This document shows positions 54,006 to 56,302 of a stretch of DNA of 64,000 bases, in pieces. Every line of letters starts with the position of its first letter. Position 1 is the stretch's first letter. The notes under the pieces are model-generated. The model searched no databases, was not told the DNA's origin, and was given only the letters and a program-made list of their open reading frames with translations. The position numbers and the translations under genes were made by a program. Source of the stretch: Candidatus Onthoplasma sp. (lineage in GTDB: Bacteria; Bacillota; Clostridia; Christensenellales; UBA1242); contig JBJETW010000008.1 of the NCBI GenBank assembly GCA_051883515.1, positions 9,662 to 73,661 on the forward strand, written 5' to 3'.

Positions 54006-55784
54006 ATGACAAGCAGAGGGTTGTCACCTGAGTTTTTAGATGAATTGAAAGCAAAAAATGACATTGTTGATGTCGCTAGCAAATATATAACTTTGAATCG
54101 TAGGGGAAATAACTACTGGGCATGTTGTCCATTTCATAGTGAAAAAACCCCTTCTTTTTCGATAAAACAAGATGGTCAGTTTTATAAATGTTTCGGTTGC
54201 GGTGAGAGCGGAAATGTGATTTCGCTTGTCATGAAAATGGAAAATATTGATTTCCGCTCGGCATGCGAGATTTTGTGCAAGAATGCAGGAATGGAAATGC
54301 CATCAGCGCAAGATGATGAAGAAATGCGAAAAAGAAAGCATGAGCGAGATAGAATTTATTCTGTTTTAAAAGACACAACGGATTTTTATCACAAAAATTT
54401 AAAAGATAATCCAGACAGTTTACAAGCAAAATATTTGAAGAAAAGAAATCTAAATGAAGAAATGATTGAAAAGTTTCAAATTGGCGCTTCAATGAATTAT
54501 TTTGATTTGCCAAAGCATTTGTCAGAATTAGGTTATACTCCTGTTGAAATGATTAATGCCGGTGTTGTTGGAAAGGGTGAAGATGGCAATTTGTATGACT
54601 TTTACGGAACGCGTCTGGTTTTCCCAATTTTTAATGGATTTGGTGATGTTGTCGCTTATTCCGGCAGAAGTGTGGACGACAATCCTCAACACGCAAAATA
54701 TAAAAATACTCCTCAAACAATTGTGTTCAATAAATCAGAGATTTTGTTTGGATATAATTTTGTAAGAGACCTAAAAAAAGAACATATGCTTGACACAATC
54801 ATCATTGTTGAAGGGCACATTGATGTAATCATGTGTCATCAAGCGGGGATAACAAACACAATAGGTTGTATGGGAACGGCGTTAACAACGCAACACGCAA
54901 GAAAAATTAAACAACTTGTTGATAATGTTATTTTGTGTTTAGATGGTGACAACGCTGGCAACATGGCCACATACAAAGCGATTGATATACTGAAATCTGT
55001 TGGTTTGAATGTTAAAGTTGTAAGGCTAAAAGGGGCAAAAGACCCTGATGAATTCATAAAAAAATTTGGCAAGGAAAATTTTGTGAATGAGTTATATTCA
55101 GGAATGGATTGCGTTGATTTTGTTTTGACAGATAGTGCGAAAAAATATGATTTGGATTCAAACTTGGACAAAACAAAATATATAAACGAGGCATTGGAGT
55201 ATATTTCTAAATTCTCAACACCAGCAGAACAAGAAGTGTATTTAAATGTTGTGCAAAAAATTGTTAAAGTTCCAATTGACGCTTTGAGAAAAAGTTTAAA
55301 TGTTCAAGAAAGTAGTCGTGAAAAGCATGTTGAAGTGGACGAAGTCCAACAAGAAACGGTTAGAGACAATTATATTCGAGAAAGTAAAATTATGTTGTTG
55401 AGTTCCATGCTTTATAAAAAACTTAAAGATGTTGACGAAATTTCAGGACTTTTCACTTCAAATGATGAATTAAGTGAATTGTATAGATTTTTATCAGAAA
55501 AGATAAAGGAAAACAAGAATTATAACGTGTCAACTCTGTTTGATAATTTTGAAATCAAAGCAAATTCATTGATTGACAAAGTTATCAATTATGTTTTTCC
55601 AGAAGACAAAGTTTTTGATACATATTTAAATGAAACAATAAAAAGAGTAAAAATTTATGAACTCGAAAAGAAAAGAGATGAAATTAAATCTTTGATGTTG
55701 AAAGCGCAAACTGACGAACAAAGATATGATTATATGTCAAAACTGAAAGAAATAACTGAAAAAATTAACAAGGAGAAAAAGTGA
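54006..55784 (+). CDS. dnaG: DNA primase
   Basis: CPFHSEKTPSF, CFGC, KYKNTP, VEGHIDV, LDGDNAG and KDPDE motifs. Confidence 0.97.
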   Translation: MTSRGLSPEFLDELKAKNDIVDVASKYITLNRRGNNYWACCPFHSEKTPSFSIKQDGQFYKCFGCGESGNVISLVMKMENIDFRSACEILCKNAGMEMPSAQDDEEMRKRKHERDRIYSVLKDTTDFYHKNLKDNPDSLQAKYLKKRNLNEEMIEKFQIGASMNYFDLPKHLSELGYTPVEMINAGVVGKGEDGNLYDFYGTRLVFPIFNGFGDVVAYSGRSVDDNPQHAKYKNTPQTIVFNKSEILFGYNFVRDLKKEHMLDTIIIVEGHIDVIMCHQAGITNTIGCMGTALTTQHARKIKQLVDNVILCLDGDNAGNMATYKAIDILKSVGLNVKVVRLKGAKDPDEFIKKFGKENFVNELYSGMDCVDFVLTDSAKKYDLDSNLDKTKYINEALEYISKFSTPAEQEVYLNVVQKIVKVPIDALRKSLNVQESSREKHVEVDEVQQETVRDNYIRESKIMLLSSMLYKKLKDVDEISGLFTSNDELSELYRFLSEKIKENKNYNVSTLFDNFEIKANSLIDKVINYVFPEDKVFDTYLNETIKRVKIYELEKKRDEIKSLMLKAQTDEQRYDYMSKLKEITEKINKEKK

Positions 55785-56302
55785 TACAAATTGACAAAAC
55801 AGATAACCTTTATAAGTTTTTAAAAGGGTTAAAAGTTGATGATGTTGATAAAGAATATTTATTATTAGCAAACAATGGGTGCTATAAAATTCAAGATATA
55901 AGAAAATTTTATCTGTCGATGTTTGAACAAACAAAACCTGAAAATATTGAAGACTTAAATCTTGATTTAATCGTTGATTATTATAAAGATGTAAAAAATG
56001 TTAAAAAACTTGGACAAGCAACATTAAAAAAACTGATAAGTGAGTATAAAAAATCAAAAGATGACAATATCAAAGAAAAGATAATATCGTCAAAACTTAA
56101 AGATTTAATGTACATGTGCTTAGAATACAAAAGTTTACATAAAGATGTCGATATTCAAGACTTGATTCAGGTTGCAAACATTGGTTTGTTGACCGCTCTT
56201 GAAAAATACGACGAAACCGCAAAAATAAATTTTAATGATTATCTGATTTATTGGGTAAGAAACGAAATAACAAAAGAATTTGAGGAGAAGAACAATGATT
56301 AA
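55781..56302 (+). CDS. Truncated sigma-70 paralog containing only regions 1.2-2.4
   Basis: [34 protein letters not shown] aligns almost without gaps to the adjacent Rpo[35 protein letters not shown]; the protein ends right after region 2.4. Confidence 0.8.

Follow-up and report, generated by a model that had tools for sequence, protein, structure and literature searches.

A stand-alone sigma domain-2 gene coupled between dnaG and rpoD in Candidatus Onthoplasma, a candidate occupant of the sigma docking site on RNA polymerase

The stretch of DNA described here, 64,000 nucleotides of a Candidatus Onthoplasma contig (hereafter, the window), belongs to a 0.93-Mb metagenome-assembled genome (MAG). 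Between dnaG, coding for DNA primase, and rpoD (sigA), coding for the housekeeping sigma factor, it carries a short gene that we refer to as the half-sigma gene. We found that the half-sigma gene is real and codes for a sigma domain-2 (sigma-2) protein that stands alone. The protein lacks regions 3 and 4, and its gene forms one tightly coupled operon with dnaG and rpoD. In the reading that we favour, and to which we give about an even chance, the protein would occupy the sigma docking site on core RNA polymerase (RNAP) without recognizing promoters. The half-sigma would dock on the β′ clamp helices of the core enzyme through its conserved region 2.2, as sigma factors do, with the sequence-specific reading of the −10 element lost and most of the DNA affinity probably lost as well. 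Because it would dock on the core and would no longer read the −10 element, it would act as an occupant of the docking site and not as an initiation factor. As such, it could compete with SigA and the sporulation sigma factors, or it could park or accompany the core enzyme, and the occupancy would modulate which sigma factor, or how much core, is available. The N-terminal unit of the protein probably packs on sigma-2 and may add a surface for a partner or for regulation.

An earlier note, made from the sequence of this DNA, had described an open reading frame (ORF) that contains sigma regions 1.2 to 2.4, ends without region 3 or 4 and overlaps the dnaG stop (GTGA) and the rpoD start. All of this was confirmed, the overlaps from the sequence itself. 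The only Pfam domain in the product was Sigma70_r2 (PF04542; residues 107-168, E 3.3e-10, 40.1 bits with a cut-off of 24), whereas Sigma70_r1_2, the region 3 model and the region 4 models PF04545 and PF08281 gave no match even at E ≤ 1. Of the group 1 primary sigma set (regions 1.1, 1.2, 2, 3 and 4), Pfam detected region 2 alone. BLASTP (E 8e-13) paired residues 67-165 of the half-sigma with residues 88-185 of the adjoining RpoD, covering regions 1.2 to 2.4 in colinear order with a single gap; of the 99 aligned aa, 29% are identical. The motif pairs that the note had quoted for the two proteins were all present in this alignment. Profile-profile comparison (hhalign) of the set of half-sigma orthologues with that of RpoD orthologues gave 98% probability. 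Region 1.2 was recognized by alignment and not by the Pfam r1_2 model. The half-sigma terminates at the counterpart of R448 of sigma70, with which region 2.4 closes and after which region 3 would follow.

Of the NCBIfam models, TIGR02937 covered region 2 only and scored 42.3 bits, just below its cut-off of 42.9. The RpoD model PRK09210 aligned with residues 3-166 of the half-sigma at 33.9 bits, with a cut-off of 572, whereas it matched the RpoD product of the window with E 7.7e-138. Further partial matches, including the RpoH, SigB and WhiG models, were far under their cut-offs (e.g. 49 bits compared to 323).

The half-sigma was mapped to a segment of sigma70 of E. coli, with a provisional residue numbering. 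Region 2.2, together with the β′ coiled-coil, forms the primary contact between sigma and core. In the region 2.2 equivalent, the residues corresponding to D403, Q406 and N409 were kept across all three genera that carry the gene. The equivalents of G411 and A415 were also kept, except for Ala and Val, respectively, in the same single species of one genus (g198). The F419 equivalent was Tyr throughout, and that of E407 was Val, Ile or Thr; Val at this position also occurs in sigma factors of the SigB/F/G type. In total, 10 of the 23 positions of region 2.2 were at least 90% conserved.

The picture was different at N383, L386, R423, Y425, K426, T429, Q437, T440 and R441, which are base-reading positions in structures of −10 recognition. 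The N383 equivalent was variable, and that of L386 was mostly Asp. R423 was replaced by Ala, Thr or Ser, Y425 by Ile or Leu, and K426 mostly by Asp. The T429 equivalent was Asp in 97% of the Onthoplasma sequences and in both sister genera, while the equivalents of Q437, T440 and R441 were changed and variable. The aromatic residues corresponding to Y430, W433 and W434 were kept as Tyr/Phe, Tyr and Trp/Tyr. The substitutions named in the earlier note (T429 to Asp, W433 to Tyr and Q437 to Asn) were thereby reproduced.

Conservation along the protein followed the same division. The region 1.2-like helix and region 2.2 were the most conserved (mean frequency of the top residue 0.78 in each), and regions 2.3 and 2.4 were among the least conserved (0.62-0.64). 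In the RpoD of the same species the pattern was the inverse, with regions 2.3-2.4 conserved best (0.97). The net charge of regions 2.1-2.4 averaged −3.0 in the half-sigmas and +6.5 in RpoD, and that of region 2.3-2.4 was −1.1 and +3.1, respectively. Taken together, the kept docking residues, the drifted reading positions, the inverted conservation and the flipped charge suggest that selection has favoured docking on core RNAP and not the reading, perhaps not even the binding, of promoter DNA. The residue map, the conservation by region and the change in charge are all in line with the suggestion of the earlier note that core binding is retained while recognition of the −10 element is changed or gone. 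Isolated region-2 fragments of sigma70 reportedly bind core, a finding ascribed to Severinova (1996) and Young (2001).

The same residues also bear on a rival explanation, in which the half-sigma is a minimal or split sigma factor that binds core and opens a −10-like element at a small regulon. It would do so alone, as T4 gp55 does, or with a separately encoded sigma-4 partner, as in SigO-RsoA or Tn916 Sig7-Sig8. We consider this unlikely. The complete sigma-2 fold and the kept equivalents of Y430, W433 and W434 speak for it, and the invariant Asp at the T429 position suggests a constrained surface. Two-subunit sigma factors also have precedents, which have been reviewed (bioRxiv 10.64898/2026.10.01.756105). 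However, the positions that would read −12, −11 and −7 are not conserved in the family, and the domain is acidic where those of sigma factors are basic. Moreover, no partner gene adjoins the half-sigma, whose neighbours are dnaG and a complete rpoD.

A split sigma would require a partner with region 4, which recognizes the −35 element and binds the β flap. Such a partner could be encoded elsewhere, and the genome does encode sigma-4-only proteins. Its sigma set comprises RpoD, SigF, SigG, SigE, SigK, SigH and three tandem SigK/E-like paralogues. In addition, three proteins have a sigma-4-like helix-turn-helix and no sigma-2, namely YlxM, of which a copy was identified in the window genome, a 411-aa protein and a 160-aa protein. 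None of these three candidates had a distribution matching that of the half-sigma. YlxM is, to our knowledge, a ubiquitous family and was hence discounted. The 411-aa protein, with a C-terminal sigma-4 domain, was rejected as strain-specific, since it was absent in 19 of 21 genomes of the carrier clade, and the two weak matches were other sigma factors. The 160-aa, sigma-4_2-like protein was rejected because it occurs in 52 of the 58 genera of the family, well beyond the three carriers. Of the three mechanisms that the earlier note had proposed, among them a decoy for an anti-sigma, the competitor for, or mimic on, core RNAP appeared best supported. For the split sigma, no co-distributed sigma-4 partner was found.

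Some features of these loci may be recorded here in their own right. The 411-aa protein (G000:C11:38323-39555, − strand, in the window genome) matches Sigma70_r4 at its C-terminus (E 5.7e-7), has internal repeats in its N-terminal part and may be mobile or strain-specific. The 160-aa protein (G000:C5:23138-23617, − strand) shows weak similarity to RinA/positive control factors, with no sigma-2 detected, and is encoded near sigG and sigE. Four tandem sigma genes, unusual for a 0.93-Mb genome, lie outside the window at G000:C11:106264-109247. One codes for a SigK-like protein with a pro-sequence (241 aa). The remaining three code for the SigK/SigE-like paralogues, of 247-256 aa, whose low-complexity N-terminal extensions all differ from one another.

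The AlphaFold2 model of the half-sigma, built from a 21-sequence alignment, was all-helical (pLDDT 88.7, pTM 0.85), with helices at residues 9-16, 22-31, 37-48, 58-71, 79-92, 95-119, 125-142 and 151-168. A Foldseek search with this model against the PDB retrieved sigma factors only, and the top matches were sigma-2 of SigA and sigma-S. The best local fit was to Staphylococcus aureus SigA in an open complex (8x6f_E), with an rmsd of 1.6 Å over 104 columns. In the predicted model, the C-terminal ~105 residues superpose on sigma-2 of SigA, and sequence-profile matches in the PDB spanned residues ~80-168 only. A phage origin, or a likeness to gp55, was also considered and rejected. Foldseek against the BFVD viral models returned ordinary phage sigma factors with weak E-values and nothing gp55-like, which also speaks against a minimal or split sigma. 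One member of the half-sigma family, P0054 (179 aa), has an insertion of ~15 residues that separates region 2.1 from region 2.2, where primary sigma factors have their non-conserved region.

The first 60 residues form an additional three-helix unit, which is as conserved as region 2.2. Asp5, Leu10, Tyr11, Leu14, Tyr26, Gly33 and Asp39 are invariant even across genera. We considered whether this unit is region 1.1, and rejected the idea, as hhalign against RpoD region 1.1 gave a probability of just 2.5% and Foldseek with the isolated unit found nothing. Hints of a region 1.1 origin are that the NCBIfam RpoD alignment begins at residue 3 and reaches residue 166, and that MAFFT showed a common ED-L...L...NG pattern. 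The pLDDT of the unit was 88-95 in the full-length model and 74.6 when it was modelled alone. Because it is lower alone than in the whole protein, this suggests that the unit packs on sigma-2.

The N-terminal unit also speaks for a second rival, in which the half-sigma serves as a decoy or adaptor without acting on core RNAP. It would offer another partner either a sigma-2 surface resembling that of SigA or the novel unit, and this partner could be a regulator or phage factor that targets SigA, or the replication machinery of the operon. A highly conserved unit without a detected homologue probably binds something, and the gene is placed between those for primase and sigma. Nevertheless, the best-kept surface is the core-docking helix with the canonical D-Q-N pattern. 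The features specific to SigA (basic residues and −10 readers) have drifted, which would make a poor design for a SigA decoy. We know of no anti-SigA factor in Clostridia, although no search for one was made. We regard this explanation as improbable, more so than a minimal or split sigma.

We must also consider whether the protein matters at all. The ratio of non-synonymous to synonymous substitution rates (dN/dS) between the closest species pairs was 0.04-0.12 for the half-sigma gene, along its whole length, compared to 0.04-0.09 for dnaG. In contigs from pig-gut metagenomes the locus had no indels, and 10 of the 11 single-base differences in the gene were synonymous, the other one changing Ile to Leu. 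In all three genera, at identities of 25-55%, the reading frame has stayed open in AT-rich DNA, and the 21-sequence alignment contained 33 invariant positions. The half-sigma is under purifying selection. A decaying duplicate, the outcome that the earlier note had named as fatal to its idea, and a chance ORF were thus both rejected on dN/dS, intact frames and population polymorphisms; in the carriers the gene is present, intact and selected.

In the third rival, the product would be unimportant, either a decaying duplicate of rpoD or a translated spacer that couples rpoD translation to that of dnaG. In its favour, the Shine-Dalgarno sequences of the downstream genes lie inside the upstream coding sequences, and the conservation of the EFEEK tail may be partly at the nucleotide level. 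The half-sigma also evolves fastest of the three proteins, with 43-53% identity to the window copy compared to 60-74% for DnaG and 76-88% for RpoD. Against it stand the selection along the whole length, the intact frame, the invariant positions and the confident fold prediction. Moreover, in sister genera dnaG and rpoD are coupled without any intervening gene. We find this explanation very improbable, the least likely of those considered. A frameshift fusion of half-sigma to RpoD was also rejected. The relative frame and overlap differ among species (+1 overlap, same-frame abutment and short gaps), which makes conserved recoding implausible. In the only RNA-labelled run found, from wastewater, reads fell on conserved rpoD segments from other organisms and none on the half-sigma gene.

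Onthoplasma (Clostridia, Christensenellales, family UBA1242) is a gut lineage with reduced genomes that unexpectedly keeps sporulation genes (PMC12306168). A full-length half-sigma orthologue was present in 23 of 24 genomes of the genus (E 1e-31 to 1e-56); one of the 23, in a MAG, carries a single TAA. In the remaining genome, which is ~82% complete, only other sigma genes were matched. At 34 further species-level loci, the order dnaG/half-sigma/rpoD was kept wherever the contig spans both neighbours. Of the 58 genera of UBA1242, three carry the gene, namely Onthoplasma and two sister genera, and in every case it lies between dnaG and rpoD. One carrier genus has a shorter form (153-160 aa), without the linker between regions 1.2 and 2.1. 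In six genomes from four other genera of UBA1242, dnaG is followed directly by rpoD. A family-profile search covering 16 other families of the order, and another ~380 genomes from it, retrieved no member. Among 1.8 billion representative proteins, about two dozen family members, all of at most 180 aa, were retrieved before ordinary sigma factors appeared, and the only named one is annotated by NCBI as "hypothetical protein". Apart from these, a metagenomic protein of 447 aa (P0068), unrelated to the half-sigma family, consists of two repeats of sigma region 4, region 1.2 and region 2 in this order, a permuted and duplicated sigma architecture.

In the tree of regions 1.2-2.4, the RpoDs of the three carrier genera formed a clade (98/99) and the half-sigmas were monophyletic (100/100). 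Because only 3 of 58 genera carry the gene, at the same position, both clades are supported, and other genera have dnaG and rpoD directly adjacent, the data fit a single origin in the common ancestor of Onthoplasma and its two sister genera. Most likely, the gene arose when the 5′ half of rpoD was partially duplicated in tandem. This is judged from its position, from its colinearity with rpoD starting at region 1.2, from its best paralogue in the genome, which is RpoD, and from a one-residue length state in the interval that separates region 1.2 from region 2.1. This state is common to the half-sigmas and the RpoDs of the carrier clade and is not found in sister RpoDs. In one carrier genus (g211), RpoD has 434 aa (L113:1704-3005, + strand) and its region 1.1 is tandemly duplicated, with two copies of a ...KIAxxLxxKxxKxIDExD...ILKxxGI... 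unit. Since region 1.1 is doubled there, the 5′ end of rpoD has been tandemly duplicated at least once more in this clade.

If docking and descent are taken together, the half-sigma would be a trans-acting subunit, consisting of sigma-2 only, that evolved from the organism's own housekeeping sigma and docks on the clamp helices without promoter recognition. This fuller proposal is possible, though we place it clearly below an even chance. If it is true, the subunit could hold core in reserve or bias the competition between SigA and the sporulation sigma factors. It could also ride with the elongating polymerase, where full sigma factors clash with the nascent RNA.

Several points weigh against docking-site occupancy and against the origin proposed with it. 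The fixed co-expression of a pure competitor with RpoD would not be an obvious design. Core docking is read from conservation, in organisms that are uncultured, and the kept aromatic equivalents of Y430, W433 and W434 would also fit a retained ability to open DNA strands. For the N-terminal 60 residues, hhalign and Foldseek detected no relation to RpoD region 1.1 or to a solved fold, and their packing on sigma-2 is deduced from pLDDT differences only. The half-sigma branch is long, and the tree did not settle its placement relative to RpoD and SigE/F/G/H/K, so we do not claim phylogenetic proof of descent from the resident rpoD. The duplication is suggested by position and colinearity.

Comparison with known systems places the half-sigma as follows. 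It has the same fold and region order as the sigma-2 domain of primary sigma factors and the same docking motif, D-x-x-Q-x-x-N-x-G; unlike that domain, it is acidic and not basic, and its −10-reading residues have diverged. Isolated sigma-2 fragments are laboratory tools that bind core RNAP via the β′ clamp helices, and region 2 alone both docks there and engages the non-template strand of the −10 element. In contrast to such laboratory-made fragments of sigma70, the half-sigma is natural, separately encoded and selected, and has a novel N-terminal unit. The sequence of its region 2.2, DLxQVxNxGL, has Val in place of E407, as do the group 3 sigma factors of the SigB/F/G type. Unlike those, it has no regions 3 and 4, its best paralogue is RpoD, and its partial matches to the RpoH, SigB and WhiG models of NCBIfam are far below the cut-offs.

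The split sigma factors SigO-RsoA of B. subtilis, Sig7-Sig8 of Tn916 and gp55-gp33 of T4 resemble the half-sigma in that a polypeptide lacks the full set of regions. T4 gp55 is similar to it in size and is sigma-2-like only (bioRxiv 10.64898/2026.10.01.756105; PMC10141391). In contrast to these systems, the half-sigma has no adjoining or co-distributed partner and its reading residues are not conserved. Its gene is the neighbour of a full-length housekeeping sigma gene, within a core operon of the chromosome and not in a stress or mobile-element module. A functional parallel may be Fin (YabK) of B. subtilis (Wang Erickson et al. 2017, as cited in PMC5942855). This small protein reportedly binds RNAP where sigma factors dock and shifts sigma use during sporulation. 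This mode of action is the one proposed here for the half-sigma, whose lineage also sporulates (PMC12306168). However, Fin does not derive from a sigma factor, and its gene is under the control of sporulation sigma factors, whereas the half-sigma is coupled with sigA. We know of no homology between the two proteins.

We found no description of the half-sigma gene in the literature on truncated, half or split sigma factors or on Onthoplasma. What is new is a domain of the sigma-70 family turned into a stand-alone protein. Were it shown to bind core without initiating transcription, it could rank as a novel regulator class. A fragment of the kind used as a laboratory tool has here become a separate, selected gene in the most conserved information-processing operon, in genomes that, at ~0.9 Mb, can hardly afford superfluous genes. 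Should the half-sigma bind core, competition among sigma factors and occupancy of the docking site could be studied in a natural setting, and the protein would be a sigma-derived addition to the short list of transcription regulators, such as Fin, that act at this site. It would also exemplify how a new regulator may arise when part of an essential gene is duplicated in tandem. The finding has a narrow reach, covering three uncultured genera and a mechanism deduced from sequence.

The features of the locus are collected in Table 1.

Table 1. Coordinates of the half-sigma locus in the window.
Feature	Position	Strand	Description
Half-sigma gene	55781..56302	+	173 aa: N-terminal three-helix unit, region 1.2-like helix and sigma-2 domain, without region 3/4
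N-terminal unit, aa 1-60	55781..55960	+	Helices 9-16, 22-31 and 37-48
Region 1.2-like helix, aa 61-75	55961..56005	+	LxxxxDYYxDxKxxK; BLASTP and hhalign alignments to RpoD
Region 2.1 equivalent, aa 99-120	56075..56140	+	Mapped by residue to sigma70 and RpoD
Region 2.2 equivalent, aa 121-143	56141..56209	+	Predicted docking surface for the β′ clamp helices
Region 2.3-2.4 equivalent, aa 144-168	56210..56284	+	Residue map; acidified
dnaG (DNA primase), upstream operon member	54006..55784	+	Pfam Zn_ribbon_DnaG, DNAG_N, Toprim, DnaB_bind
rpoD/sigA, complete, downstream operon member	56295..57395	+	366 aa from ATG; Pfam r1_2, r2, r3, r4
Coiled-coil and C4 zinc-ribbon gene (CT398-like)	57395..58096	+	Pfam Zn_ribbon_9, E 7e-7
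Coupling junction dnaG/half-sigma	55770..55784	+	Shine-Dalgarno AAGGAG (55770-55775), then GTGA; from sequence
Coupling junction half-sigma/rpoD	56282..56302	+	Shine-Dalgarno GAGGAG (56282-56287), rpoD ATG at 56295; from sequence
Promoter-like site	53583..53611	+	TTGACG-17-TAGAAT with TG (extended −10); consensus scan only

At the upstream junction, the AAGGAG lies within the last dnaG codons, with a 5-nt spacing (aaaaa) before the GTG start of the half-sigma gene. This start (55781) overlaps the TGA stop of dnaG (55782-55784) by two bases. Across 12 orthologous loci, the junction was GTGA in ten, TAGTG in one and GGTGA in one. At the downstream junction, the GAGGAG is encoded by the EFEE tail of the half-sigma, and the rpoD ATG overlaps the final half-sigma codons and the TAA stop (56300-56302), the sequence being ATGATTAA. 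GAGGAG precedes the rpoD ATG at the 12 orthologous loci as well. The mechanical ORF call put the rpoD start at TTG 56280. Judging by the orthologues, the true start is ATG 56295, because they all begin with M(I/V)N(V/L)(E/D)EI at this point and because of the spacing from GAGGAG. The start of the CT398-like zinc-ribbon gene abuts the rpoD stop, and this gene was kept 3′ of rpoD at all loci examined.

A consensus scan found no terminator-like site between dnaG and the zinc-ribbon gene after rpoD. The promoter-like site ahead of dnaG is likely the promoter of the operon, and a terminator-like hairpin, also a consensus match, lies upstream of it (53516-53539), 3′ of ppdK. Directly 5′ of dnaG and behind the promoter-like site, there is a 110-aa ORF (53602-53934, + strand) with a non-significant match to DUF4116 (E 0.39). 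The promoter-like site overlaps the listed GTG of this ORF, and the real start may be ATG 53632.

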